This document shows, in pieces, positions 13,893 through 57,185 of a stretch of 64,000 nt of DNA. Numbering within the stretch: position 1 is the first letter of the stretch; each line of letters starts with the position of its first letter. The DNA is from Hadesarchaea archaeon (GTDB lineage: Archaea > Hadarchaeota > Hadarchaeia > Hadarchaeales > WYZ-LMO6): assembly GCA_029259185.1 (NCBI GenBank), contig JAPDJF010000003.1, positions 14,875 to 78,874 of the forward strand, given 5' to 3'. The position numbers and the translations under genes were made by a program. The notes under the pieces are model-generated. The model was not told the origin of the DNA, ran no database searches, and was given only the letters and a program-made list of their open reading frames with translations.

Positions 13893-13976
13893 GGGTTTAA
13901 TTCCTTTTCTGAAATTTCTTATTTATTTTTTGTTTCCAGTTTTTGCTTTATCACAATTTCTGGAATATTTTAGAGC

Positions 13977-14160
13977 GGAATCGAGCGAGAAACCCCGCGC
14001 GCTTTAGCCGTGGGGTGAATGCGTGCCGAGGGCCGATTCCGCAATAGCTAACGGCCCGAGCGAACGCCCGGAGACCAAGACCCCCGTAACCCCCCTTCCA
14101 AGGGGGATCGAGCCTGGTCGTCGAAGCATGAAGCCACCGCTTTAGCGGTGCGGTAGTTCA
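13977..14160 (+). repeat. Repeat F, copy 1 (about 185 nt; hairpin-rich; other copies at 35552-35730 and 48487-48675).
   Basis: Near-identical blocks (gaatcgagcgagaaaccccgcg(c)gctttagc(c)gtgggg...ggccgattccgcaatagctaacggccc...ccgtaacc...gggggatcgagcc...ccgctttagcggtgcggtag) in all three copies. Confidence 0.5.
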
Positions 14161-35515: not shown

Positions 35516-35551
35516 ATTCGACCTGGGAAAATTGATGATGAAGCTTTAGAA

Positions 35552-35730
35552 CGGAATCGAGCGAGAAACCCCGCACTTTAGCGTGGGGTGAATGCGTGCC
35601 GAGGTCCGATTCCGCAATAGCTAACGGCCCGAGCGAACACCTGGAGATCAATACCTCCGTAACCCCCTTCCATGGGTGATCGAGCCTAGTCGTCGAGGAG
35701 GAAGCCCCGCTTCAGCGGTGCGGTAGTCCA
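35552..35730 (+). repeat. Repeat F, copy 2.
   Basis: See F copy 1. The first hairpin has compensatory changes (ccccgcactttagcgtgggg). Confidence 0.5.
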
Positions 35731-35850
35731 CTGTCTTAGTAACCTCAAACCCGTACCTCGAACGAGTGGGCCCCCCGGATTTTGGGTATACCGGAAAATG
35801 GGCCTTAGATTTGACCACAAGTATTTAAAAGGTCTTGAGGAAGAGGGAAG

Positions 35851-38412: not shown

Positions 38413-38787
38413 GTGTACAGGTGGAGACACTTCAGACACGGGCCCGGGAGGCCCATGAAACCCAGATTCATAGGGTTAAAACCATGTCTCTTCACGTTTA
38501 TTCCTTCCTCATGTGAAGAATTTCCCCCTGGAACTCCGGATCCAATTTATATGGCATACGATGAGTATGAGGCATTTCGGCTAGTGTACCATGAGGGGTT
38601 GAATCAAGAGGAGGCTGCCAAGCGGATGAGAATTTCGCGGGGGACGCTGTGGCGCTGTCTTGAGAGTGCGAGGAACAAAATAGCGCGTATGCTAGTGGAA
38701 CACCGCCCCCTTGTGGTCACCCCCGCACCCCATCCGACTCCGGGAGCCACCTCGACTGGGAGTTCCCCTCCGCTCATCCATCGTTAG
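38413..38787 (+). CDS. Sigma-70 region-4-like HTH protein (archaeal DUF134/UPF0251-type).
   Basis: LNQEEAAKRMRISRGTLWRCLESARNKIA resembles a sigma-70 r4/LuxR-type HTH. Confidence 0.45.
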   Translation: MYRWRHFRHGPGRPMKPRFIGLKPCLFTFIPSSCEEFPPGTPDPIYMAYDEYEAFRLVYHEGLNQEEAAKRMRISRGTLWRCLESARNKIARMLVEHRPLVVTPAPHPTPGATSTGSSPPLIHR

Positions 38788-43840: not shown

Positions 43841-44020
43841 TCATTCCGGAAAACTTATGGCACCCGCAGTACATACTGCTTCACATGCTCTGCAGTCTAC
43901 ACACTCGTCGGGCTTAACGACCTCACATTTTTCATCCTTGACTTCTAGCACTTCGACAGGACAGGCGTTTACACACTCCCCGCAACCGGTGCACTTCTCT
44001 CTATCTATTACGGGTGGCAT
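43841..44020 (-). CDS. 2x[4Fe-4S] ferredoxin (59 aa). Below the ORF-track cutoff.
   Basis: Manual translation gives MPPVIDREKCTGCGECVNACPVEVLEVKDEKCEVVKPDECVDCRACEAVCTAGAI, which has two CxxCxxCxxxCP motifs. Confidence 0.55.
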   Translation of the reverse strand: MPPVIDREKCTGCGECVNACPVEVLEVKDEKCEVVKPDECVDCRACEAVCTAGAISFPE

Positions 44021-44154
44021 TTTATTTGATGGATTCTAGTTATATTTAAATTTTTAGTTATGGGGCGATTCGTTGGAGGTTCGAGCGAAGTGCAGTGCGA
44101 GATCGCGGAAGGGATTAGACCACCGTTTCGGCTTGGATCGTTTGGGGGAGGGTT

Positions 44155-44799
44155 CTACAAAAAGTACTCCTTTATGAATTCAAAATTTCTTTTAGTCTTT
44201 TCCGCCCCTTTGACCACGCCACCGTGGCCTGGGAGCAGGTAGTGAATATCCAACTCGGAAACCCTTCTTATGGAGTCCTTCAATTTCTCCAGATCACCGC
44301 CTGGAAAGTCTGTGCGACCCACACCACCCTCGAACAGGAGATCCCCGCACATCAGTAACTTCAGTTCCTCACAGTAAAAGCTCACACTCCCGGGTGTGTG
44401 ACCGGGAGTGTGAATCACCACGAATTTCATTTTTCCCCCCAGTTTGTCCTCCAAAAAAATATCAACATCGAACTTCGGCATCTCCATTCCGAAGTACCCA
44501 GCGAACTCCATACTGAATGAGAGGTGTTCTAATTCCTCACGGTGCATCGCTATCTTAGCCCCTGAGAGGGTCTGAAGTGCACGGTTGGCCCCGCAGTGAT
44601 CGGGGTGGCTGTGGGTGTTCGCTATTAGGTCTATTTCTCTGATATCGAAACCATCGTTTTCCATCTCCGATAAGCGCTGACTCAAATATCTTGGATTTCC
44701 GGGATCGATGAGCACGCAAGGATTGTTGTCTATCAAGTAGGTGTTGCAGTCACCGATAGCTTTCTCGGGATACCAATAGACATTTTTGACCAGTTTCAT
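44155..44799 (-). CDS. MBL-fold metallo-hydrolase (glyoxalase II-like).
   Basis: THSHPDHCG (HxHxDH) motif. The probable start is MKLVKNV at 44799. Confidence 0.7.
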   Translation of the reverse strand: MKLVKNVYWYPEKAIGDCNTYLIDNNPCVLIDPGNPRYLSQRLSEMENDGFDIREIDLIANTHSHPDHCGANRALQTLSGAKIAMHREELEHLSFSMEFAGYFGMEMPKFDVDIFLEDKLGGKMKFVVIHTPGHTPGSVSFYCEELKLLMCGDLLFEGGVGRTDFPGGDLEKLKDSIRRVSELDIHYLLPGHGGVVKGAEKTKRNFEFIKEYFL

Positions 44800-45627
44800 C
44801 TCGACCACCGCGAGGAGACCCCGTCCGAAAGGGCTGGGAGATTTTTAGGTGAAAATGCGCGTGCGATCTTTGAAGACAGTCCAGCAGGGAGAAACGGCTT
44901 GGATGTGGGCCGGATACCCGAAAACCCGAATAAGCTTGTACAGAAATTCTTTCTGGCTCCGCGGATAGCTTTGCAGGAGCCATGAGTTCCTCCGCTACCT
45001 GACACTCTCTACCACCATTCTCGCTTTGTTTGAACACATACCGTAGAGCCTGCTAGAGAAGCTGGCGACGACGGAGGGGAGATCTCCGACTAACTCCTCG
45101 TGGGGAGTTCGTTCTTCTCGTTCATTTACCACTTCTATTCGAGCGCCGAGATCCTCAGCGTGATTTTTCAAATACTCAAAGCCAAAGCGGGTGAGGCGAT
45201 CTTTCCACGCAACGATCACGGTATCGGCCTCGCCAGCCCTAAGCATCTCGAACACTTTTTTCAACCCCCGTCGGTTCTCGAAAGTCGCAACCACTCGTAT
45301 CGCTTGCCCCTCGCGTATTCCTGAAGCATTCGTTTTTGACGTTTCAAATCTTCTTTCTGATCTACTGAGGAAACCCGTGCGTAGGCGATAGCCCGATTTT
45401 TTGGGACTCGTTGACCGAGCAACCGTTTGATTCCGCTCTCTGGGATACGATACCTTTTGGCCGCAGCCTGATGGCCTTGACCCTGCCCGCGTAAATCCAG
45501 CGCTTTATGGTGATGAACGAAATCTCCAAGAGCTTGGCCGCTTGCCCCGGTGGGCAGAGTTTTTCCCCTCGCATGTTCACCTGGGATATAAAAGGATATT
45601 TTAGGTAGCAGTTACATCACCTTCGAC
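44800..45627 (+). mobile_element. Chimeric/degenerate IS: an IS200/605-type left end (shared with the 1911 and 46852 copies) followed by an inverted, frameshifted IS607-type tnpA. The right boundary is approximate.
   Basis: Left-end identity (ctcgaccaccgcgaggagaccccg...gtgaaaatgc) and the block gagaaacggcttggatgtgg.ccggatacccgaaaacccgaata shared with copy A. Inserted 3' of TTCAT (44795-44799). Confidence 0.45.
44995..45580 (-). pseudogene. tnpA: IS607-family tnpA (MerR-like HTH plus serine-recombinase catalytic domain), disrupted by at least two frameshifts.
   Basis: Three minus-strand frames carry consecutive TnpA blocks: HTH (AAKLLEISFITIKRWIYAGRVKAIRL), the active-site region (AIAYARVSSVDQKEDLKRQ) and RGLKKVFEMLRAGEADTVIVAWKDRLTRFGFEYL. 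Confidence 0.6.
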
Positions 45628-45634
45628 AAAGCTT

Positions 45635-46054
45635 TTAGGGGGACGTTATGATTTTAGCTTTTCTTAGTACTTGGGAGGTCGTTTCTGTAATAATTTTTTC
45701 ATTCAACTCACTCGGTGAGAACCACCTGACGTCTGAAACATCTTTCCCTCTTCTGAGCTCACCACCCATGGGTTCTCCCTCAAAGCACACTACGACGTAG
45801 TGATATCTGAGATCCCCCTTCCCATCTCTCCCAATCACGTCATACACACCAAACAAATCAAGCAATTTTATCTTCAGTCCCGTTTCCTCCTCCACTTCTC
45901 GGATTGCTGTGTCTCTAATACCCTCTCCTGGCTCCACTAATCCTCCAGGGAGTGCCCACAACCCTTTTCCCGGATCAGATACTCTCTTAATGAGCACTAC
46001 CCTGTTTTTCCCGTCACGGATCAATGCGGAGGCTCCCACGAGTGGGCCGATCAT
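45635..46054 (-). CDS. Nudix hydrolase.
   Basis: Nudix box GGLVEPGEGIRDTAIREVEEETGL. Confidence 0.75.
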   Translation of the reverse strand: MIGPLVGASALIRDGKNRVVLIKRVSDPGKGLWALPGGLVEPGEGIRDTAIREVEEETGLKIKLLDLFGVYDVIGRDGKGDLRYHYVVVCFEGEPMGGELRRGKDVSDVRWFSPSELNEKIITETTSQVLRKAKIITSP

Positions 46055-46056
46055 CT

Positions 46057-46851
46057 CTATCCACTTGAAGCCGCTCTCTCCACCACTTCACTTAGCTCTG
46101 TCATTTTCTCTAGAATTCTCTCACCCCCCTCCGCATCGAATACAGAGACTCCCTTGAGTTCAGCTCTAGCCACACTTTCTTCGTATGGGATAGAGTATAT
46201 GGGAGGAACCCCAATTTTTTGGAGCTTCGTTGAAATGAATTCATTTTCTCTATCACGATATTTGTTTATTACCCCGAATATCTTGGTTATCCCTAGATCC
46301 TCTCCAAGCTTTTTTATCCGTCCAGCTGTTTCGATGGACCTCAGGCTCGGTTCCACCACTGTCAGGAGGATCTCCACTTTTCTCGTCGTTCCCCTTCCAA
46401 GATGTTCCACTCCAGCTTCCATGTCTAGGAGTAAAACATCAGCGACGCCTGAGAGGTGATCCACGAGTCTCCTCGCCAAGGCATTAGCTGGACAGAAACA
46501 ACCCTGTCCCCCCCTTCTGATTCTTCCAACGATAAGGAGTTTAACGCCATCCTTGCATTGGACTCCGAACTTATCTAATAAATCATCGACTTTCGGATTT
46601 AATTTGAAGATCAGTCCATATCCTTCAGGTGGTGCTCCGGTTCTCTCTTCGATGAGGGAGTCTCTCTCCATCAAAGGGATCAGTTTTCTTTCCGGAACTT
46701 CCCCACCAACTCCTAAGGCCGTGATGAGATTCGGGGAAGGATCGACATCCAGTGCAATGACTTTTTTCCCCCTTCTAGCGTAGGCTCTGGATAGTCCTGC
46801 GGCGATCGTTGTCTTTCCAACACCACCTTTTCCCGTTATGGCGATCTTCAT
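46057..46851 (-). CDS. cooC: CooC/AcsF-type Ni-insertion ATPase (MinD/ParA fold) for CO dehydrogenase/ACDS maturation.
   Basis: Walker A GKGGVGKTT plus the CooC-specific CxC motif (GQGCFCPANA). The probable start is MKIAITG at 46851. Confidence 0.7.
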   Translation of the reverse strand: MKIAITGKGGVGKTTIAAGLSRAYARRGKKVIALDVDPSPNLITALGVGGEVPERKLIPLMERDSLIEERTGAPPEGYGLIFKLNPKVDDLLDKFGVQCKDGVKLLIVGRIRRGGQGCFCPANALARRLVDHLSGVADVLLLDMEAGVEHLGRGTTRKVEILLTVVEPSLRSIETAGRIKKLGEDLGITKIFGVINKYRDRENEFISTKLQKIGVPPIYSIPYEESVARAELKGVSVFDAEGGERILEKMTELSEVVERAASSG

Positions 46852-47777
46852 CTCGACCACCGCGAGGAGACCCCGACCTTTTGAGGCGGGGAGGAACTGC
46901 GGGGGGGTTTTAAGTGAAAATGCATATACGCTGTTCTGATGAGGCTCGCCAAGACCGTCGCGTGCAGGCTTGAGCTCAGCGACGAGGAACGGCATAAGCT
47001 CCTCGCACGCTCCAGGCTTTTCGGGATGCCTGCAACCACATCTCCAAGATCGCCTTCGAGCGCAGGGTGTTCAACCCCGTCGCCCTGCACCACATGGTTT
47101 ACAGAGATACCAGGGCCAAATTCGGCCTGCCTGCGAACCTCGCAATCCGCGCCAGGGATCGGGTGGCCAAAGCATACAAGCAAAGGCGGAACAGGCTCCT
47201 CCGGTTCGACAAGCTCTCGCTCGACCTCGACGCTAGGCTCTTCCGTGTGTTCGAGAAGCCCGACGGGTGGCACGCCTCCATCGCAACGGTTCAGAAGCGG
47301 ATCAAGCCCCCGCTCAAAATAGGCGAATACCAGCGGAAACTGCTCGAGGGTGTCAAGCCGACCCACGCCGTGCTCACCTACAAGAACAAGCGGTTCTTCC
47401 TGCACGTCACCGTCGAGCGAGAAGTCCCGGAGCCAAAAGGAGATAACCCAGCCGCTGTTGATGCGGGAATGAACAATTTGCTCGTCGCTTCCAACGGCTT
47501 CAAGGTCAGGGGCAAAGGTATCCTCAAACGAAGACAGCACTTTCGAGCCTTGCGCTCCTCCCTCCAAGCCAAAGGCAAGCCGTCTGCCAAGCGCGGGCTG
47601 AAACGGCTCGGCTCGAAGGAGGGGAGATGGGTTGCTCGCGTGAACTTGGAGCGGAGAGCCGGCTCTCCCTCCATGGGCCGCCCCGTCAACCGGCCCTATG
47701 CGGGTTTGAGTGTCTTCGGACATGATGATCACCCTGCAAGCCCATCCTTTAGGGAAGGGTAGTTGACCTTCTTAACC
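46852..47777 (+). mobile_element. Degenerate IS200/605-family (TnpB-only type) element. It consists of a left end, a tnpB pseudogene with an internal deletion, and a right end.
   Basis: The left end is shared with 44800 and the right end with 2040-2132. Inserted 3' of TTCAT (46847-46851), which overlaps the cooC start. Confidence 0.6.
46939..47762 (+). pseudogene. tnpB: tnpB (IS605 OrfB family) remnant. N-terminal part only, with one frameshift near 47010 and a deletion of the RuvC/zinc-finger C-terminal region.
   Basis: MRLAKTVACRLELSDEERHKLLAR, then after a frame change TLQAFRDACNHISKIAFERRVFNPVALHHMVYRDTRAKFGLPANLAIRARDRVAKAYK...AAVDAGMNNLLVASNG...KRLGSKEGRWVARVN. The remnant then runs directly into the right end. 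Confidence 0.6.
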
Positions 47778-47804
47778 AAATACTTTAAGAACTCAAAACT
47801 GTTA

Positions 47805-48050
47805 CGTTCACTTTCCCTCGCGCTTCGCGGAAGCTTTCCCCGCTTTAGCGGTGCTCTAGCCCCTGCTTCATCCACCGACCCGATCCCATCCCCCTTCGGG
47901 CGGTTACGGAGATCCAATGTCCATCCTACCCGCGTCGTGGAGGTTTACAGGCGTTGGGTTCGGGGTGGCCCTCTCCACCTCCCGGAAGATTTTCGGCTCT
48001 CATCCCCAGCTCTCGCAGGGAACTTTCCGCTGACAGAATTAAAATAGGAG
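47805..48050 (+). repeat. Repeat D, copy 1 (about 245 nt; candidate structured RNA/MITE; the inverted copy is at 56912-57185).
   Basis: Four long conserved blocks match the inverted copy. They are separated by two variable insertions (19 vs 28 nt and 1 vs 24 nt). Confidence 0.5.
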
Positions 48051-48074
48051 ACATCACAACATTGCTTTGGAAGC

Positions 48075-48485
48075 ATGGGAGAGAAAATAGCGAGAATAAG
48101 CATCACTTTGCCCCAAGAGCTCCTTAAGGAACTCGATAAATCATTGAGGGCTCAACGATATGCAAGCCGGTCTGAGGCGATAAGAGATGCGGTCAGAGAC
48201 TTCTTGGCGGCATACAAGTGGCGAACGGAGTTAAGGGGAGAACAGTTGGGAGTTATCGTCCTCCTTTATGATCACCATACCCGCGGGCTTACGGATGTGA
48301 TCACCGAGATCCAGCACGAAAAAAGTGAGGTGATAAGAGCCTCCCAGCATATGCACATCGATCAGGAAAACTGTATGGAAACCTTGATGGTAAAGGGACC
48401 ATCGGAAGAGATAAAACGACTGGTAGATAGGCTAGGGGCACTACGTGGAGTCAAGCAAGCTAAGCTCATAGTGGTATCGTCTTAG
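48075..48485 (+). CDS. nikR: Nickel-responsive regulator NikR (RHH plus C-terminal metal-binding domain).
   Basis: N-terminal RHH (KIARISITLPQELLKELD...RSEAIRDAVRDFL) and a C-terminal domain with His/Cys ligands (HH...H...C). Confidence 0.7.
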   Translation: MGEKIARISITLPQELLKELDKSLRAQRYASRSEAIRDAVRDFLAAYKWRTELRGEQLGVIVLLYDHHTRGLTDVITEIQHEKSEVIRASQHMHIDQENCMETLMVKGPSEEIKRLVDRLGALRGVKQAKLIVVSS

Positions 48486-48486
48486 G

Positions 48487-48675
48487 TGAACTACCGCACC
48501 GCTAAGGCGGTGGGCCTCTTGCTTCAACGATGAGGCTCGATCCCCCTTGGAAGGACGGGTTACGGAGGTCTTGACCTCACGGGCGTTCGTTCGGGCCGTT
48601 AGCTATTGCGGAATCGGCCCTCGGCACGCATTCGCCCCACGGCTAAAGCGCGCGGGGTTTCGATCCCGTTCTAAA
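48487..48675 (-). repeat. Repeat F, copy 3 (reverse orientation).
   Basis: The reverse complement aligns along its full length to F copies 1 and 2. Confidence 0.5.
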
Positions 48676-48859
48676 TTTTCGATCCGGAGTCCTTTAGCCT
48701 TTTTTTGGAAATCTTTCTAACCTCTTCCCACTCTTTCATTGATTCTAATTTTTTCTTCTTTCGAAAAGCCTCCATTATTTTGTTTTCTTCCATGGCTACT
48801 TCAATATCCCCACTTTCACATCCCAACTACATCACCATCCTCCTTTTTCCTAGACTCTT

Positions 48860-48900
48860 AACCGTAATATATTTATGTGCATTTGCACATAAAGGGGAAG
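48860..48900 (+). promoter_or_regulatory. TATA-like box (aatatattta) followed by a perfect palindrome TATGTGCA-TT-TGCACATA. Candidate promoter/operator.
   Basis: Seen in the sequence (taaccgtaatatatttatgtgcatttgcacataaagggg), 10-50 nt upstream of the 48909 ORF and about 400 nt downstream of nikR. Confidence 0.4.
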
Positions 48901-48908
48901 GTGAAAAA

Positions 48909-49103
48909 ATGTGGTGGTCTGGTTTCGGAAGAGGTCGGGGCTGGTATGGGCCTTGGCCGGGAAGGGGACCGTTCAGCTACCTCCCACCTTGGCAGAGGCC
49001 GGGGTGGATTTTCGGTAGAGGAGCCTGCTGGTGGCTTCTCGGGCCGTGGGCTGGGTGGTACTACTACACACCCTATTACGGATTGCCTCTCTACCCCCTC
49101 TGA
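48909..49103 (+). CDS. Candidate 64-aa W/G/Y/P-rich small protein (MWWSGFGRGRGWYGPWPGRGPFSYLPPWQRPGWIFGRGACWWLLGPWAGWYYYTPYYGLPLYPL).
   Basis: ATG preceded by GGTGA 5 nt upstream. It sits behind the TATA box plus palindrome. Composition is extremely biased. Overlapping ORFs in the other frames make the coding status uncertain. Confidence 0.3.
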   Translation: MWWSGFGRGRGWYGPWPGRGPFSYLPPWQRPGWIFGRGACWWLLGPWAGWYYYTPYYGLPLYPL

Positions 49104-49166
49104 TCTGGGGGGTTGGAGCTTGAGAGGTAGCACCAGCAGCTTACTAGGTGAGAGGAGAGTAGGTGT

Positions 49167-49820
49167 TTGAAAGCTCGGAGCGGATCGGAATCATACAAAT
49201 ACCATGAGCCTATATTACTTTTGATGGGGCTAGAAGTCCTGATCTTGCTACGGGGGGAATACACCCAAGAAAACCTAGCTCTTCCAGCTACTATGGCTTG
49301 TAACATCACTGAGGAGGGAGAGACCCTCTTAGTCCCCTTTCCGTTGGATTCTCCCCGATACTTCCGGTGTGACTCTCCCCCCACCAAGTATACGGTCCCT
49401 CCCGCGATCAGAGATCTCGATTTCGAGGTAATCCTCAGTGATTGGGAGAGTGGATGTCTGGACGTGGGCAAGGCAGTCGTGATATGCGGATTGAGGGGGG
49501 AGAAACTGAAGCCAAGATATGTAAGGGAGAGGGGAATCCCATGTCAAGAGAACATTCTATTCTACACGAGGGGATACACGAGGATCACGGCCCAACCCCA
49601 TGGAGATATAACCATCGAGAGGTTTACCCCAAGATTGACTAAGGAAAAGGAAGTAATAGAGATAAATCATGAGGCATTATGGAGTGGAAATCGAAAAGAT
49701 CTCCCAGAGGAACTTTCATGTTATAAACCCGCAGTAGAGGCGGCGGTAGAAAAAGCTAACTGTCCCAGTTGTAGAGAACCCCATTACGCGTTGAGCAATT
49801 CAAGGTTGGGTAAATCTTAA
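49167..49820 (+). CDS. Hypothetical protein (217 aa; the start may be the internal Met near 49290).
   Basis: ORF only. No recognisable motifs apart from a terminal CPSC. Confidence 0.35.
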   Translation: MKARSGSESYKYHEPILLLMGLEVLILLRGEYTQENLALPATMACNITEEGETLLVPFPLDSPRYFRCDSPPTKYTVPPAIRDLDFEVILSDWESGCLDVGKAVVICGLRGEKLKPRYVRERGIPCQENILFYTRGYTRITAQPHGDITIERFTPRLTKEKEVIEINHEALWSGNRKDLPEELSCYKPAVEAAVEKANCPSCREPHYALSNSRLGKS

Positions 49821-49824
49821 TACT

Positions 49825-50502
49825 ATGTTCAAAATACCCATTCTAATGTCGGAGCTGAAGCTTGTCCTTGAGGCTCTGCTCGATTTCAAAGGGGAAAAAA
49901 TAAGAGACTTTTGTGAGCGGAAACTTGGGGAAGGAACGAGCGCATACGAGATACTCCAAGAACTCAATCGGGGTTTGGATGAGATAGGGAAAGGATATGA
50001 AAATAAAGAGTTCAGAAGATACTTCGAATCAGACCTGATCGTTTCTGGAGCTAACATGAGGAGGGCCATAGAAATCTTAAAACCCGAACTTGAGAAGGAG
50101 GCGAGGAAAGAAACGAAGAGAAGGGGAAAAGTGCTCATCGGCACCGTGAAGGGGGACGTACACGATATCGGTAAAACAATTGCAGGTATCGTTTTACAAT
50201 CGAACGGATTCGAGATCATAGATCTCGGTACGGATGTGGATAAAGCGACATTCGTAAATAAGGTAAGAGAACTCAAGCCTGACATCGTGGGCATGTCGGC
50301 ACTCCTCTCATCCACCGTGCCTTACATGGGGGAAGTGATCAAGGCCTTGGAAGCTGAAGGGTTGAGGAACAGAGTTAAGGTGATAGTGGGTGGCAGAGCC
50401 GTGAGCAAGGAGTTCGCCGAGCGGATAGGAGCTGATGCGTATGCAGAAGATGCGATAGACGGGCTAAAAAAGTGTATTTCTCTCATGGAGGGGAAAGAGT
50501 GA
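49825..50502 (+). CDS. Corrinoid (cobalamin-binding) protein, MtaC/MtbC/MttC-like.
   Basis: N-terminal helical cap plus a B12-binding Rossmann domain with DVHDIGK (DxHxxG), SALL and GG motifs. Confidence 0.75.
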   Translation: MFKIPILMSELKLVLEALLDFKGEKIRDFCERKLGEGTSAYEILQELNRGLDEIGKGYENKEFRRYFESDLIVSGANMRRAIEILKPELEKEARKETKRRGKVLIGTVKGDVHDIGKTIAGIVLQSNGFEIIDLGTDVDKATFVNKVRELKPDIVGMSALLSSTVPYMGEVIKALEAEGLRNRVKVIVGGRAVSKEFAERIGADAYAEDAIDGLKKCISLMEGKE

Positions 50503-51407
50503 GAATTTACATCATCTATAGGGGACCTTTCGGCGAGCAGATCACGAACAATCTCGCGCTTAAGGGATTCGCTGAAATGATCTCTGGAATTTACGAGCTG
50601 AAGCCCGAAACGATAGAGGAAGAGTATCAAGAGGAGGATCTTTGGAACAAGGTGTGGGAGGAACCAGCCAAGTACGTCCCCAAGAGTTTACCTATCAAAA
50701 GGTGTGATCTCCTGCTGGTTTTGGGCATCCATTCTAAACTTGGTGACTTTATTCCCCCTATAGCGGAGAAACTGGGGGCCAAAGCCGTACTTTACCCAAT
50801 AGATGATAAGCAACACGCTCCCGAAGCTAGGAAAACGGTGGAAGAGGATCTGAGAGCGAAGGGAATACACGTGGAATTTCCAGAGCCATTTTGTGTTCTG
50901 GAGGGGAGTGAGGATCCCATGATAAACGAGTTTGCACAACACTTTGGGAGACCGAAATTCAAGATAATCTCAGAAGGGAGCACTATTCACTCCGTAGAGG
51001 TGTTGAGGGACACCCCCTGTGGCTCGGCGACTTCTGTAGCAAAAAAAATGGTGGGGTTCAGTTGTGCGAATCTGAAGGCCTTAAAAGAAAAGCTGTTTAG
51101 TGAACACCACAACGAAGAGAACGAAAATTACTGTCTAGCGGAAATGGATCCCCTCCATCCCTACATGCAGGAAGCTGGTGACATACTAGTGGATGCTTTC
51201 TTCGAGGCCTGTGGCGTTCCCACCCTCCAAGAACTTATCTTGAAAGAAATAGAATCGACCGGGAAGCTGGATCTTTCAATCCTCAAGAGTAAATTCGTCG
51301 ATGAGGAGAAACGATGTGAAACGGGTATGACTATCGAGCGAGTTGTTGATGAGCTAGTTCGGAAAGGAAAGATACCGAGGGACTTGCTTCACTCCCATAC
51401 CGAGTGA
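50472..51407 (+). CDS. Conserved archaeal hypothetical protein (DUF166-like).
   Basis: ORF of about 300 aa. The probable start is the GTG at 50499 (MRIYIIYRGPFGE). Function unknown. Confidence 0.45.
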   Translation: MYFSHGGERVRIYIIYRGPFGEQITNNLALKGFAEMISGIYELKPETIEEEYQEEDLWNKVWEEPAKYVPKSLPIKRCDLLLVLGIHSKLGDFIPPIAEKLGAKAVLYPIDDKQHAPEARKTVEEDLRAKGIHVEFPEPFCVLEGSEDPMINEFAQHFGRPKFKIISEGSTIHSVEVLRDTPCGSATSVAKKMVGFSCANLKALKEKLFSEHHNEENENYCLAEMDPLHPYMQEAGDILVDAFFEACGVPTLQELILKEIESTGKLDLSILKSKFVDEEKRCETGMTIERVVDELVRKGKIPRDLLHSHTE

Positions 51408-51424
51408 ACTCGGTTAGAAACTAG

Positions 51425-53122
51425 TCAGGGGGAGGTGCACTGGTCGAACACTAGTTCACCCATGAGTCTGTAGAGGAAGTTGCTCTCCGATTCGAGGTTC
51501 AAATGCTCGATCCGGCTTACCATTTCTTCCACTTCTTTTCGTTTCTTCCTCGAGACCAACACCTGTCGGGCCCCCTCTAGTGCCGCATTCCCCACCCGTT
51601 CGACCCTACTGAGGGAAACTTCAGGGAGTAGACCTATCCGGTAAGAGTTTTCTACGTTTATGTAGTTTCCGAATGCCCCGGCGAGGTAAATCTTTTTTAC
51701 CTCACCTAGGCTGGTCCCATATTTCTCCAGAAGCACCTTATTTCCCACACAAACCGCCGCTTTCGCGAGCTTCAGCTTGTCTATATCCTCCCCATCTATT
51801 TTTATGGGTCTCTCTCCGGCGACTACCACGAATTCCCGCCCGCCCTTTTTGAATTTTCCTGTTTTGTCTATTATCCCACGATCCAGCATCTGGGCCAGGA
51901 TATCGATCAGGCCAGATCCACATATCCCCACGGGTGGGAGGTCACCTATGGTCTCGTATCGAACCCGCATGCTTTCGTCTATTTCTACCTTGTGTATTGC
52001 CCCCTCTACTGCCCCACTCCCACATTTTATCCCGCTTCCCTCGAAGGCGGGTCCGGAGGCGCATGAGGTGGCGATCATCCTATCTTTATTTCCTATCACT
52101 ATCTCGGTGTTGGTTCCTATGTCTATCATCATGCTCACCTCTCGCCTCTTGTGCATCCCTGTAGCTAAAATGGCAGCAGAGGTGTCGGCCCCCACGAAAC
52201 CCCCGATGAGGGGAAGAGCATAGACGTTTCCCTTGGGATTCATCTTTATTCCTAGCTCTCCTCCACTTCTGTTCACGGGATCTTTGGTGAACGGCTCAAA
52301 CGGGGCCACCCCTAGAGAATCCACCGGGTGGCCTAGGAAGAGATCCCTCATCGTTGAGTTTCCTACCACGACCATCTCGTATACGTGCTGCGGATCGACT
52401 TTCAGCCCCTCGATCATCTCGTTCACCCCACTTCTCACAACGGTCTCCAGTTTGTGCTGCTTTTTCTCCCGAGCACGGGTTATCCTGGCGATGACATCGC
52501 TTCCATACACTTCTTGAGGGTTCTTCATAGCAGTAGTCCCCACGATGAGTCCTTTTTCTAAATCCACGCAGTACATCGCTAGTGTGGTTGTTCCAATATC
52601 CAGAGCTAGCCCGAGCATCTCCCCCTCATAATCCCCGATCTCCCTCACAATTCCATTCCACTCCCAGCGCACCCTCCGTGTTTCTCCTTCACCACCAACT
52701 ACACCTATCACCGGTTCGAGGGGTACTGGAACGACCTTGCCTCTCTCCAGCACCTTGTACCTCCGCTTTGGGACTTCCACGTATATGTTTGCATCTTCTT
52801 TCTCCACTCTGGCTTGGCAGGCGAGTCTGTATCCGGTTTCTTTGATGAACTTCTTTTCGATGTCTCCGGGTTCGTTCAGCCCTTCTCCTTCTACTTTTAC
52901 CACACACTGGCCACACGCTCCGATGCCTCCGCAGAGGGAGCTTATGTCTATCCCGAGTTCTTGGCAATAAGAGAGGATCGTCTTGCCCTTGGTCAGTTTC
53001 GCTTCCTTTCCGTAGTTCCGAAAAAAAATCTTCCCCAATCTCTCCCCTCTAACAAACACTTTTCTTGGATTTAATCTCACCGGCAAGAGGCTTTGTGGTG
53101 GATGAGCGGAGATTCGTTCCAA
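51425..53122 (-). CDS. Reductive activator of corrinoid Fe-S protein (RACo-like; COG3894, ASKHA ATPase with an N-terminal [2Fe-2S] ferredoxin domain).
   Basis: Plant-type 2Fe-2S motif (CGGIGACGQCVV...C) followed by an actin-like ATPase fold (DIGTTT, VDIGTNTE). Confidence 0.7.
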   Translation of the reverse strand: MERISAHPPQSLLPVRLNPRKVFVRGERLGKIFFRNYGKEAKLTKGKTILSYCQELGIDISSLCGGIGACGQCVVKVEGEGLNEPGDIEKKFIKETGYRLACQARVEKEDANIYVEVPKRRYKVLERGKVVPVPLEPVIGVVGGEGETRRVRWEWNGIVREIGDYEGEMLGLALDIGTTTLAMYCVDLEKGLIVGTTAMKNPQEVYGSDVIARITRAREKKQHKLETVVRSGVNEMIEGLKVDPQHVYEMVVVGNSTMRDLFLGHPVDSLGVAPFEPFTKDPVNRSGGELGIKMNPKGNVYALPLIGGFVGADTSAAILATGMHKRREVSMMIDIGTNTEIVIGNKDRMIATSCASGPAFEGSGIKCGSGAVEGAIHKVEIDESMRVRYETIGDLPPVGICGSGLIDILAQMLDRGIIDKTGKFKKGGREFVVVAGERPIKIDGEDIDKLKLAKAAVCVGNKVLLEKYGTSLGEVKKIYLAGAFGNYINVENSYRIGLLPEVSLSRVERVGNAALEGARQVLVSRKKRKEVEEMVSRIEHLNLESESNFLYRLMGELVFDQCTSP

Positions 53123-53219
53123 GTATTCGGATTTCAGCGATCACCATACCAAAAGTTTTTATGTGCAATAGCTAAAAAACATAAGCTTAAAGATGGATGA
53201 GTAAAAGGGGGGAAGGGCC

Positions 53220-53639
53220 GTGAATGGACATGAACCGAGGATTATAGCTTTCTTCTGCAACTTCTGCTCCTATTTAGCAGCAGATATGGCTGGAGTGAGC
53301 AGGATCCAGTATCCGCCGAACGTGCGGATTATCCGACTGATGTGTACAGGAAGATTGAGTCCTCTTTATATTCTAGAAGCGTTCGCGCGAGGTGCTGACG
53401 GGGTGTTGGTGGCGGGATGCCATCCCGGTGATTGTCACTTCATAAAAGGAAACCTGTATGCGAGGAGGAGAGTTTCCATGTTGAAGAAACTGCTTGAGAT
53501 GATGGGGATAGACCCGAGGAGACTCCGACTCGAGTGGGTTTCAGCCTCCGAAGGAAACAAACTCGCGAACGTGATCAAGGAATTCGTTGAAGAAGTTAGA
53601 TCGCTCGGAGCCAACCCGCTGAAGGAGGTTAACGCGTGA
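53220..53639 (+). CDS. mvhD: MvhD-type [2Fe-2S] protein (methyl-viologen-reducing hydrogenase delta subunit family).
   Basis: IIAFFCNFCSY...MCTGR...GADGVLVAGCHPGDCH shows the typical MvhD cysteine pattern. Confidence 0.7.
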   Translation: MNGHEPRIIAFFCNFCSYLAADMAGVSRIQYPPNVRIIRLMCTGRLSPLYILEAFARGADGVLVAGCHPGDCHFIKGNLYARRRVSMLKKLLEMMGIDPRRLRLEWVSASEGNKLANVIKEFVEEVRSLGANPLKEVNA

Positions 53640-55663
53640 TCGACTACGTGCCCACCATCTGTCCGTACTGCGGGTGCGGGTGTGGTATGTACTTGGTGGT
53701 GAAAGAGGGGAGGATAGTGGGTGTGGAGCCATGGAAGGAACATCCAGTGAGTGAAGGAAAGCTGTGTCCAAAAGGGAGGAATTCTTACGAGTTCCTGTAC
53801 AGCCATGATAGATTGAAAAAACCATTGGTACGTCGGGGAGATAGACTTGTGGAAGGATCTTGGGAGGATGCGCTTCGCCGAGTGGTCAACGAGTTCAGAG
53901 ATACCTCTCCAGAGGATTTTGGAATTCTCGCATCGGGAAAGACAACAAATGAGGAGAGCTATGTGTTGCAGAAGTTCGGGAGGGTAGTTATAGGAACCAA
54001 CAACATAGACTACTGTGCTAGGTTCTGTCACGCAACCACGGTTGGTGGGTTGGGGCCCACCTTAGGTTCTGGAGTGATGGCATCTTCCGTGCTAGACTAC
54101 GAGCTTCCCGATTGTTTTTTGATAGCCGGGGTGAATGTTCAGGAGACATTCCCTGCTATCGCGAGACGCATCAAAAGGGCAAAAGAACGTGGGGCAAAGA
54201 TAATAGTTATCGACCCCCGGAAGACGCTTACGGCTAAGCTTTATGCAGATATACATCTCCAACTCTTTCCGGGAACCGATGTTGCACTCATAAATGGGAT
54301 GATGCGCGTGATACTGGATGAGGGACTTGAAAACGGAGAGTTCATCGAGAAGAGAACCAAAGGTTTTGAGGAGCTCAAAGAATACTTGCTCAGCATCGAT
54401 CTCAAAGAAGTGGAAGAAACCACGAACGTCTCGCTAGATGAAATCAAAAAGGCGGCTGAAACATATGCCGGGGCAAAAACCGGTAGCATCCTTTACGATG
54501 AGGGGATCACGGAGTACACGACGGGAGCGGAGAAAATAACCGCGTTGGCCGACTTAGCTTTGCTTACCGGACACGTGGGTAAGCCGGGTGCGGGCGTGAA
54601 TCCGATGAGGGGGCAAATAAATGGAGAAGGCACAGGAGACATGGGGTGTTTCCCGGTGTTCTATCCCGGGTTCAAGCCTCTAACCGAGCAGACATTCGAA
54701 TTTTTCAGGGACGTCTGGAATGTTGAGTCAATTCCCGAGAAAGCAGGCAAGACCGTTATGGAGATGCTCGAGGACTGCAAAAAACTCTACATCGTGGGTT
54801 TTAATCCCATGGTCTCTGCGCCCCACGTCACTCGGGTAAAGGAATTGTTGGAGCAGAAAGAGTTCGTGGTTGTTCAGGACATTTTTCTAACGGAGACCGC
54901 AGCTTTGGCAGATGTTGTCTTACCGAGCGCAGCGTGGGGGGAGAAAATGGGTACACACACATGGACCGATCGAAGGGTTCAACTCGTTAGGAAAGCCGTG
55001 GATCCACCTGGAGAAGCCATTCCCGATTGGCAGATAATCTGCAGGTTAGCTGAGATGATGGGATACGGCGATCACTTCGAATACAAATCTCCACGTGATA
55101 TTTTCGAGGAGATAAGGAGGTGTGTTCCCCAATATAGAGGGATCAGCTATGAAAGATTGGAGAAGAGTTCAGGAGGGATTCAGTGGCCCTGTCCTTCGGA
55201 AGATCATCCAGGGACCTCCACGATGTTCGTGGAGAGATTTAACACCCCTGATGGATTCGGACACTTTGGAGTAGTTCAGTACAGGCCCCCGGCGGAACTT
55301 CCGGATAACGAATATCCGTTCATGCTTACCACGGGGAGGGTGATATTCCATTACCACACCGGCACGATGACGAGGAGAACCGAGAGACTCAGCAACGAAG
55401 TCCCCACGGGTTTTGCCGTGATCCATCCCGAAAATGCTGAGGAGCTCGGGATAATGGATGGGGATGAGATCCTACTTGTCTCAAGACGTGGGAGAGTTAA
55501 AACTTTTGCGAGAGTCTCAAACGAGGTTGCGAGGGGGCTCATATTCATGCCGTTTCATTTCGCCGAACGTGCGGCGAATATCCTGACGAACCCCGTGTTG
55601 GCACCCACTAAGATGCCCGAGTTCAAACTCTGTGCTGTCAGGATCGAGAGGGAGGGCAGTTGA
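53636..55663 (+). CDS. fdhA: Formate dehydrogenase alpha subunit (molybdo/tungstopterin; Cys type).
   Basis: N-terminal 4Fe-4S (CPYCGCGCG...C), the MopB domain and a C-terminal MoCo-binding domain. No in-frame TGA. Confidence 0.85.
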   Translation: MIDYVPTICPYCGCGCGMYLVVKEGRIVGVEPWKEHPVSEGKLCPKGRNSYEFLYSHDRLKKPLVRRGDRLVEGSWEDALRRVVNEFRDTSPEDFGILASGKTTNEESYVLQKFGRVVIGTNNIDYCARFCHATTVGGLGPTLGSGVMASSVLDYELPDCFLIAGVNVQETFPAIARRIKRAKERGAKIIVIDPRKTLTAKLYADIHLQLFPGTDVALINGMMRVILDEGLENGEFIEKRTKGFEELKEYLLSIDLKEVEETTNVSLDEIKKAAETYAGAKTGSILYDEGITEYTTGAEKITALADLALLTGHVGKPGAGVNPMRGQINGEGTGDMGCFPVFYPGFKPLTEQTFEFFRDVWNVESIPEKAGKTVMEMLEDCKKLYIVGFNPMVSAPHVTRVKELLEQKEFVVVQDIFLTETAALADVVLPSAAWGEKMGTHTWTDRRVQLVRKAVDPPGEAIPDWQIICRLAEMMGYGDHFEYKSPRDIFEEIRRCVPQYRGISYERLEKSSGGIQWPCPSEDHPGTSTMFVERFNTPDGFGHFGVVQYRPPAELPDNEYPFMLTTGRVIFHYHTGTMTRRTERLSNEVPTGFAVIHPENAEELGIMDGDEILLVSRRGRVKTFARVSNEVARGLIFMPFHFAERAANILTNPVLAPTKMPEFKLCAVRIEREGS

Positions 55664-56911: not shown

Positions 56912-57185
56912 TTTTAACTCTGTCGGCGGGAAGTTCCCTGCGAGAGCTGGGGATGAGAGCCGAAAACCATGTTATTTCCCCTCCAATTTCTTCCGGGAGG
57001 TGGAGAGGGCCACCCCGAACCCAACGCCTTGGAAAACCGATGACCTGCACAGCGCAGGTAGGATGGACATTGGATCTCCGTAACCGCCCGAAGGGGGATG
57101 GGATCGGGTCGGTGGATGAAGCAGGGGCTAGAGCACGCTAAAGCGGGGAAAGCTTCCGCGAAGCGCGAGGGAAAAGCGGAAGCCC
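56912..57185 (-). repeat. Repeat D, copy 2 (inverted relative to copy 1), in the convergent fdhB/cdhE intergenic region.
   Basis: Its reverse complement aligns to 47805-48050. Confidence 0.5.

Follow-up and report, generated by a model that had tools for sequence, protein, structure and literature searches.

Archaeal repressors such as MDR1, Phr, TrmB/TrmBL1 and SurR act at operators that overlap or abut the TATA box or the transcription start, and are expected to exclude TBP/TFB or RNA polymerase when occupied; a protein bound between the TATA box and the start would block the recruitment of RNA polymerase. A palindrome placed in this way was analyzed in a 64,000-nt stretch of contig JAPDJF010000003.1 of a Hadesarchaea archaeon (the window; coordinates are counted from its first letter), where it precedes an open reading frame (ORF) of 64 codons, here called the micro-ORF, downstream of nikR. 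Described NikR operators are inverted repeats of 27-28 bp with 13-14-bp spacers, namely GTATGAT-N13/14-ATCATAC in E. coli and GTGTTAC-N13/14-GTAACAC in delta-proteobacteria (PMC545781). The orange protein (ORP) complex found in Desulfovibrio vulgaris Hildenborough consists of metal-cluster proteins, among them the MinD-type ATPases Orp3 and Orp4 with two [4Fe-4S] motifs and the orange protein Orp8; its physiological role is unclear even in Desulfovibrio, and its operons are switched on by OrpR, a sigma-54 enhancer-binding protein (PMC6345978, PMC8359166). An archaeal origin has been proposed for the ORP system (PMC8359166). Two protein families are central to the locus: DUF5320 (PF17253), comprising small proteins of anaerobic archaea and bacteria, for which the searchable literature yielded no functional study, and DUF134 (UPF0251, PF02001), for which the same literature yielded no functional study, DNA target or regulon. 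The reading developed below, which we regard as reasonably probable, is that the palindrome marks a regulon controlled by DUF134 and linked to the handling of metal clusters.

The promoter consists of a TATA-like box (taatatattta, 48865..48875, + strand), the operator palindrome (TTTATGTGCA-TT-TGCACATAAA, 48872..48893), a Shine-Dalgarno-like GGTGA (48900..48904, + strand) and the ATG at 48909, and when the sequence was read directly this order agreed with a preliminary description of the locus. The arms of the palindrome, which begins within the TATA-like stretch, are perfect and 10 bp long; the 8-bp arms given previously (48874-48881 and 48884-48891) are their inner part, and the spacer between GGTGA and ATG is 4 nt instead of 5. 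The micro-ORF (48909..49103, + strand) is a small, monocistronic-looking gene for a DUF5320-related protein of 64 amino acids (MWWSGFGRGRGWYGPWPGRGPFSYLPPWQRPGWIFGRGACWWLLGPWAGWYYYTPYYGLPLYPL), with a core at approximately residues 16-43, a single Cys40, and a Tyr/Pro/Trp-rich tail. Its richness in Gly, Trp, Pro and Tyr and its lack of His had been described correctly, with the counts now corrected from 14 Gly, 9 Trp, 9 Pro and 7 Tyr to 13, 10, 10 and 8, respectively. The TGTGC-N4-GCACA core of the palindrome (48876-48889) has one exact match in the 64 kb, and a search allowing at most one mismatch returned two matches in the window versus 0.74 expected. A weight matrix was built from the promoters of homologous genes, with 30 shuffles of the window as the null; the palindrome (48873) was the top site in the window with 30.7 bits, the shuffle maximum being 18.8. 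Because of this difference and the single exact core match in 64 kb, the palindrome is not a chance feature.

Homologs of the microprotein were searched among 5.8 billion proteins with a cut-off of E<=0.01. A total of 259 were found (best E 4e-17), many of which carry PF17253, and a scan using one genome per species identified a relative in 277 archaeal species genomes, with taxa including Bathyarchaeia, Thermoprotei, Nitrososphaeria, Hadarchaeota, Methanomethylicota, Korarchaeia, Brockarchaeota, Thermoplasmata, Thermococci, and Methanocellales. The family core, WPGRGPFSYLPPWQRPGWxFGRGACWWL (also written WPGRGPFSYLPPWQRPGW-x2-GRGACWWL), is nearly invariant and contains the single Cys. Residues G20, P26, P27, W28, R30, G32, G36, G38, and C40 are invariant in the alignments, with C40, G36 and G38 unchanged in 121 sequences; grouping at 50% identity leaves only 121 clusters because the family varies so little. 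Variation is concentrated in third codon positions, the entropies at positions 1, 2 and 3 of the core being 0.26, 0.12 and 1.24 (70 genes), and codon differences are 26992 synonymous versus 5078 non-synonymous, or approximately 5:1. All of the 73 homologs (73/73) have the frame of the micro-ORF open, with antisense and shifted frames being closed for the most part. The preliminary description had asked for a test of the coding potential, and these comparisons speak for a coding gene: by these measures, the micro-ORF is a genuine gene under strong purifying selection, and because the other frames are mostly closed in the homologs, the ORFs that overlap it in the window, on the antisense strand or in another frame, are shadows of a GC-rich coding stretch.

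The alternative of an untranslated ORF, with a palindrome that forms an RNA hairpin or has arisen as an inverted repeat by chance in GC-rich sequence, could draw on the overlapping ORFs on both strands, on the lack of a Pfam match for the microprotein itself, and on an exact-sequence look-up in assembled contigs, in which this contig had no called gene on record for the protein. This alternative is contradicted by the codon-position signature, the synonymous excess, the frame that stays open in every homolog, and the number of those homologs, and an RNA hairpin is excluded because many genomes have the palindrome upstream of the TATA box and hence outside the mRNA. We give this alternative practically no chance, and in our judgement it is already refuted by conservation. 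An Rfam scan of 44000-54000 at E<=1 returned no match for the palindrome or the GC-rich stretch.

For the comparison of promoters, 90-130 nt upstream of each homologous gene were extracted. The exact core was present within 120 nt upstream of 40 of the 73 homologous genes (0 in shuffles), and the core with at most one mismatch within the same distance of 63/73 (0.12 genes in shuffles). The motif is 412 times denser upstream of the homologs than elsewhere in the loci, where 534 kb remained. The consensus derived from 158 distinct sites is TTwTGTGC-AwwT-GCACAwAA, to which the window site is a full match. When promoters from Hadarchaeota, Thermofilum, Methanodesulfokora and other Thermoprotei were aligned, the operator was the only conserved block, flanked by a TATA-like box and by the Shine-Dalgarno sequence and ATG; TTTATA, TTTTATAG or TTTAAATA stands directly upstream of the palindrome in the homologous promoters, and the relatives have GGTG at the position equivalent to the Shine-Dalgarno sequence of the window. 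The offsets between operator and TATA centers are discrete, being -14 (over the side of the B recognition element), +10 to +15 (past the TATA box but before the expected start), and +39 (the second site of two-site promoters); for the window, an offset of about +12 was estimated by eye from the sequence. The likeness in position to a repressor operator, which the preliminary description had noted, was borne out: the palindrome is located between TATA box and transcription start, where such an archaeal operator would be expected, and this placement recurs in other genomes. Half-sites are approximately 10 bp apart, a spacing that would suit a dimer.

The same 20-bp operator spans Thermoproteota, Bathyarchaeia, Hadarchaeota, Korarchaeia, and Methanocellales, and to judge from these promoters the palindrome is a regulatory site that many archaeal lineages have retained at fixed TATA offsets. 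To our knowledge, conservation of an operator over many archaeal classes is unusual, such regulator sites being rare in archaea. The operators of the archaeal repressors named above are likewise compact, situated just upstream or downstream of the TATA box, and found at discrete offsets; the motif is different here, as is the protein family proposed to bind it, which is uncharacterized. Neither the operator nor its assignment to DUF134 appears to have been described before. A palindromic operator with a helix-turn-helix regulator is an ordinary kind of system, and the breadth of classes together with the extreme conservation of the microprotein makes it moderately interesting.

To identify the neighbors of the homologous genes, ORFs around 80 loci were clustered and then scanned against Pfam. 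DUF134, whose family resembles sigma-70 region 4, was found near the micro-ORF homolog in 48 of these loci and was the commonest immediate upstream neighbor (22 loci, divergent in 14); divergent DUF134 and microprotein genes share the operator-bearing intergenic region, and in this first locus set 23 motif matches fall within the region shared with DUF134. The window itself contains a DUF134 helix-turn-helix gene with a GTG start at 38413..38787 (+ strand), 10 kb upstream of the micro-ORF, which is the proposed trans-acting regulator. It was recognized by Pfam at 3.9e-19 (69.5 bits versus a PF02001 threshold of 27) together with a Sigma70_r4 match, in keeping with the sigma-70 region-4-like helix-turn-helix of the DUF134/UPF0251 family, and its product is 58% identical to the DUF134 protein of locus L012, which adjoins a micro-ORF homolog, and 70% identical to a Hadesarchaea DUF134. 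The recognition-helix motif SRGTxWR, invariant in this archaeal subfamily, reads SRGTLWR in the window; this motif and the element GRGRPxKxR set the subfamily apart from the classical form in locus L076. Proteins of the subfamily start with a Trp/Arg-rich arm that ends in GRGRPxKxR (window 38413-38480) and resembles an AT-hook core (RGRP). This arm might make contacts with the A/T-rich sequence that flanks the operator.

A second, independent collection of 80 metagenome loci (316 kb), anchored on DUF134, was searched for the operator. There were 41 exact matches versus 0.3 expected and 87 matches with at most one mismatch versus 8.7 expected. These 87 matches precede members of the microprotein family (36), DUF134 itself (14, typically as TGTGC-N4-GAACA), NifX-like genes (10), other DUF5320 paralogs (at least 7), EncFtn-like genes (5), radical SAM genes (4), and MinD-Fer4 genes (3), and this is how the targets of a transcription factor that regulates itself together with a regulon should be distributed. 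The site of DUF134 itself, consistently the one-mismatch form TGTGC-N4-GAACA, is located approximately 20 nt before the start (L093, L094, L107, L108, L114, L133, L138, L144), which suggests an autoregulatory operator of lower affinity. The motif core is identical wherever the SRGTxWR helix is present, and it is too uniform for co-variation with helix variants to be followed.

Another archaeal transcription factor, unlinked to these loci, might instead bind the conserved operator, with DUF134 being a mere member of the regulon. Co-localization cannot tell a regulator from a regulated gene, 32 of the 80 loci have no DUF134 within 4 kb, the DUF134 gene of the window has no site in its own promoter, and regulators of the DtxR and Lrp types occur in a few loci. 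However, DUF134 is by a wide margin the commonest DNA-binding neighbor, with 48 loci versus 5 each for DtxR-like and Lrp-like proteins; the shared divergent operator with a weaker site before its own gene is the classic signature of an autoregulated factor, and the constancy of the core alongside the SRGTxWR helix points in the same direction. We consider an unlinked factor unlikely, though worth keeping in view.

The preliminary description had proposed that NikR binds the palindrome and that the microprotein is nickel-regulated. The nikR gene (48075-48485) was confirmed by Pfam (NikR_C 7.5e-30, with RHH_1) and by the NCBIfam model 'nickel responsive regulator' (164 bits, cut-off 111); its stop is 389 nt upstream of the palindrome, close to the 400 nt first given, and NikR is a ribbon-helix-helix repressor that binds inverted repeats. 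The described cluster of genes for acetyl-CoA decarbonylase/synthase (ACDS) and formate dehydrogenase was also found, with CdhA/C/D, RACo, FlpD, FdhA/B and a CooC-like ATPase in the window, and the Ni-enzyme character of the CooC-like ATPase, ACDS and RACo region would favor a nickel regulon. The assignment to NikR itself was not upheld. A tblastn search with the NikR of the window, reaching approximately 3-4 kb around the homologous gene or DUF134, found no homolog in the 80 genome loci and 80 metagenome loci, that is, in any of 160 loci carrying a homologous gene, the motif or DUF134. Although the palindrome and described NikR operators are both inverted repeats in promoter regions, with nikR adjacent in the window, the palindrome is 20-22 bp long with a 2-4-bp spacer (4 bp between the half-sites of the core, as opposed to 13-14 bp) and has another half-site, so the NikR geometry of 27-28 bp with N13/14 (PMC545781) is absent. 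Sites of the delta-proteobacterial NikR type with at most 3 mismatches were at or below chance in the window.

The adjacency of nikR and the micro-ORF reflects a local rearrangement, because Hadarchaeales relatives that have the downstream operon carry neither gene at this position and because a repeat element lies between the two genes and a TnpB remnant upstream of nikR. Between the conserved downstream unit and the CooC-like gene are found, in turn, the TnpB remnant, nikR, a copy of a 190-nt repeat, and the micro-ORF. The TnpB remnant is a weak OrfB_IS605 match (47067-47762, + strand, E 3.3e-5, below the Pfam cut-off) in a patch of 57-63% GC upstream of nikR (46800-48074 in general), parts of which recur in the window: 47812-48044 resembles 56912-57174 (- strand) at 85%, and 47656-47767 resembles 2022-2132 at 83%. 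The GC-rich repeat of approximately 190 nt has three intergenic copies, at 48486-48675 (+ strand), 13969-14160 (- strand) and 35545-35731 (- strand), which are 83-88% identical; the first directly separates the nikR stop from the micro-ORF promoter and had no Rfam match. The consensus fold of the element is -57 kcal/mol with only one compensatory pair, and the element could represent a family of structured non-coding RNAs or else a miniature mobile element such as a remnant akin to a TnpB guide RNA or a transposon end. Mobile or repeat DNA thus seems to surround nikR and the micro-ORF. The CooC-like MinD/NifH-type ATPase gene (46057-46995, - strand) lies just upstream of the TnpB remnant and nikR, and a connection of NikR with this gene and with the Ni-dependent CODH/ACS genes is more plausible than one with the micro-ORF. 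We regard control of the palindrome by NikR as very improbable; the palindrome is not linked to nikR, and the operator most likely belongs to DUF134 rather than to NikR.

Apart from DUF134, the neighbor survey recovered proteins of the Nitro_FeMo-Co family, which are NifX- or orange-protein-like, in 48 of the 80 loci, further coiled-coil DUF5320 paralogs in approximately 30, MinD/ParA ATPases with two [4Fe-4S] motifs in 29, a metallo-beta-lactamase-fold (MBL) protein in 18, an EncFtn-like ferritin in 9, FeoB in 7, a NifU-like protein in 6, and FeoA and DtxR in 5 each. The ORP-like genes often adjoin FeoAB, DtxR and EncFtn-like genes. In Hadarchaeota, the closest lineage, the usual order is DtxR-FeoAB and then DUF134-MBL-microprotein-small ORF-NifX-NifXx2-MinDFer4x2. 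The likeness to the ORP system lies in micro-ORF homologs heading operons with Nitro_FeMo-Co and MinD-Fer4 genes, which resemble Orp8 and Orp3/Orp4, respectively. The two differ in that OrpR has no archaeal counterpart while the archaeal clusters carry DUF134 and the palindrome, in that no microprotein of the DUF5320 type is described as an ORP component (PMC6345978, PMC8359166), and in that ORP-like genes are absent from the vicinity of the micro-ORF and from the whole window. Among the typical DUF5320 neighbors, DUF134 alone occurs in the window.

Homologs of the microprotein fall into two types by their C-terminus, one with the E/K-rich coiled coil of canonical DUF5320 and the other with a Tyr/Pro/Trp-rich tail. 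In the alignment, the microprotein of the window ends in GPWAGWYYYTPYYGLPLYPL, whereas the canonical tail is E/K/L-rich and heptad-like. Homologs with the coiled coil exceed the PF17253 gathering score of 27 bits (P0005, 28.3 bits; P0053, 30.9 bits), and E-values down to 4e-17 against proteins annotated with PF17253 establish homology to bona fide DUF5320 members. The Gly/Arg-rich N-terminal part and the GRGxC cysteine are common to both types, and homologs have the same neighbors (DUF134, NifX-like and MinD-Fer4 genes); the window protein differs in lacking both the coiled-coil C-terminus and a Pfam match, and in belonging to an archaeal subfamily whose Trp/Pro-rich core is almost invariant and whose tail is aromatic (Tyr/Pro/Trp). 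Judging from these alignments, it is a DUF5320 relative with a swapped tail that has lost the coiled coil. An NCBIfam scan gave no model for it, and a profile search in the PDB gave nothing beyond coiled-coil noise (E>0.1). AlphaFold2, run on the 121-sequence alignment, produced only short low-confidence helices, with a predicted local distance difference test score (pLDDT) of 53 and a predicted template modeling score of 0.28. The N-terminus of the microprotein, GWGRGRGGW, resembles the Trp/Arg-rich arm of DUF134 in composition. A Lys/Glu-rich ORF of 51 amino acids (48671-48826, - strand) diverges from the micro-ORF; as a candidate for a split-off DUF5320 coiled coil it was rejected, having no significant similarity to any ORF in the loci, and it was treated as non-coding.

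In the mechanism proposed, the promoter of the micro-ORF would contain the 20-bp operator of a dimeric helix-turn-helix regulator, and this regulator would be the DUF134 protein encoded at 38413-38787, since DUF134 is the commonest adjacent regulator, shares the divergent operator region, and has a weaker motif before its own gene. DUF134 would act as a repressor in the window, because the site is located past the TATA box and before the expected transcription start, where a bound dimer would block the recruitment of RNA polymerase. The microprotein would work with co-regulated ORP-like genes, namely those for NifX/orange-protein-like carriers and MinD-type ATPases with two [4Fe-4S] motifs, and the single invariant Cys (GRGxC) in an oligomer of the microprotein might bind a metal-sulfur cluster or hand it on. 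Rearrangement in this genome has parted the micro-ORF from the ORP-like cluster and brought it beside nikR. From gene context and one invariant residue, the microprotein is most likely a small subunit or adaptor of a metallocluster-handling system, possibly with a bridging cluster held via Cys40 in an oligomer.

Several observations weigh against this mechanism. The window has no NifX-like or ORP-type MinD gene, only partial matches of the ferredoxin-domain and CooC-like kinds, and its DUF134 gene is 10 kb from the micro-ORF and has no recognizable operator upstream. The assignment to DUF134 is one by association, and the subfamily lacks an invariant Cys or His, which leaves the sensing of a signal unexplained. 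In other lineages, a placement of the operator upstream of the TATA box could point to activation and not repression. The microprotein matches no Pfam family even at E<=1 and fails the DUF5320 model, its structural model is of low confidence (pLDDT 53) and has no solved relative, and the binding of a cluster, built on one invariant Cys and on gene context, is speculation.

Some of the same features would fit a microprotein that serves as a regulatory partner of DUF134, either sensor or antagonist, and not as a metallocluster subunit. Its genes and those of DUF134 form the tightest pair in the neighborhoods, the operator is directed mainly at the microprotein gene, and the invariant Cys is found in the microprotein and not in DUF134, which has no invariant Cys or His; the structural model also suggests that the microprotein may not fold alone, which would fit folding on a partner. 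Against such a partnership, NifX-like genes are as frequent as DUF134 and often co-operonic with the microprotein, and the two genes stand 10 kb apart here. A partner role is therefore given a low probability, and it is equally doubtful that the invariant Cys of the microprotein supplies a redox or metal signal that feeds back on its own promoter. A subunit or adaptor role within a DUF134-controlled regulon remains the reading that we prefer.

The second-best site of the weight-matrix scan, TTATGTGCAATAGCTAAAAA (53159..53178), is a candidate weak operator in the divergent intergenic region between the RACo gene (- strand) and flpD-fdhA-fdhB (+ strand). It scored 19.9 bits versus the maximum of 18.8 in the 30 shuffles, and its right half-site is degenerate. 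One might go further and regard DUF134 and a Cys-bearing microprotein that senses metal-sulfur clusters or redox state as a widespread archaeal two-gene module, which would act through one 20-bp operator on an ORP-like metallocluster and iron regulon and might here reach flpD-fdh and RACo-ACDS via the 53159 site; we think this improbable.

Downstream of the micro-ORF, the true start of the next gene is ATG 49224, not TTG 49167. It encodes a Cys-rich hypothetical protein of approximately 190 amino acids (49224-49820, + strand) found only in Hadarchaeales, with 8 database relatives and no Pfam or NCBIfam match. Together with genes for a B12-binding protein and DUF166 (49825-50502 and 50472-51407), it forms a conserved unit (L161-L164) that in Hadarchaeales adjoins RACo-CdhD and has a divergent peptidase M54 gene upstream, and the Cys-rich protein is probably an accessory of the corrinoid/ACDS system. 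There are no tRNAs within the window.

The microprotein is under extreme purifying selection and has yet been overlooked by gene callers, and the locus cautions against inferring function from the nearest regulator gene. If the candidate site at 53159 is functional, formate dehydrogenase or ACDS activation would be tied to the same regulator. Two widespread families of anaerobic archaea, DUF134 and DUF5320, would be linked by a concrete and testable regulatory element, and the link between DUF134 and the operator may offer an experimental handle on the archaeal counterpart of the ORP system.

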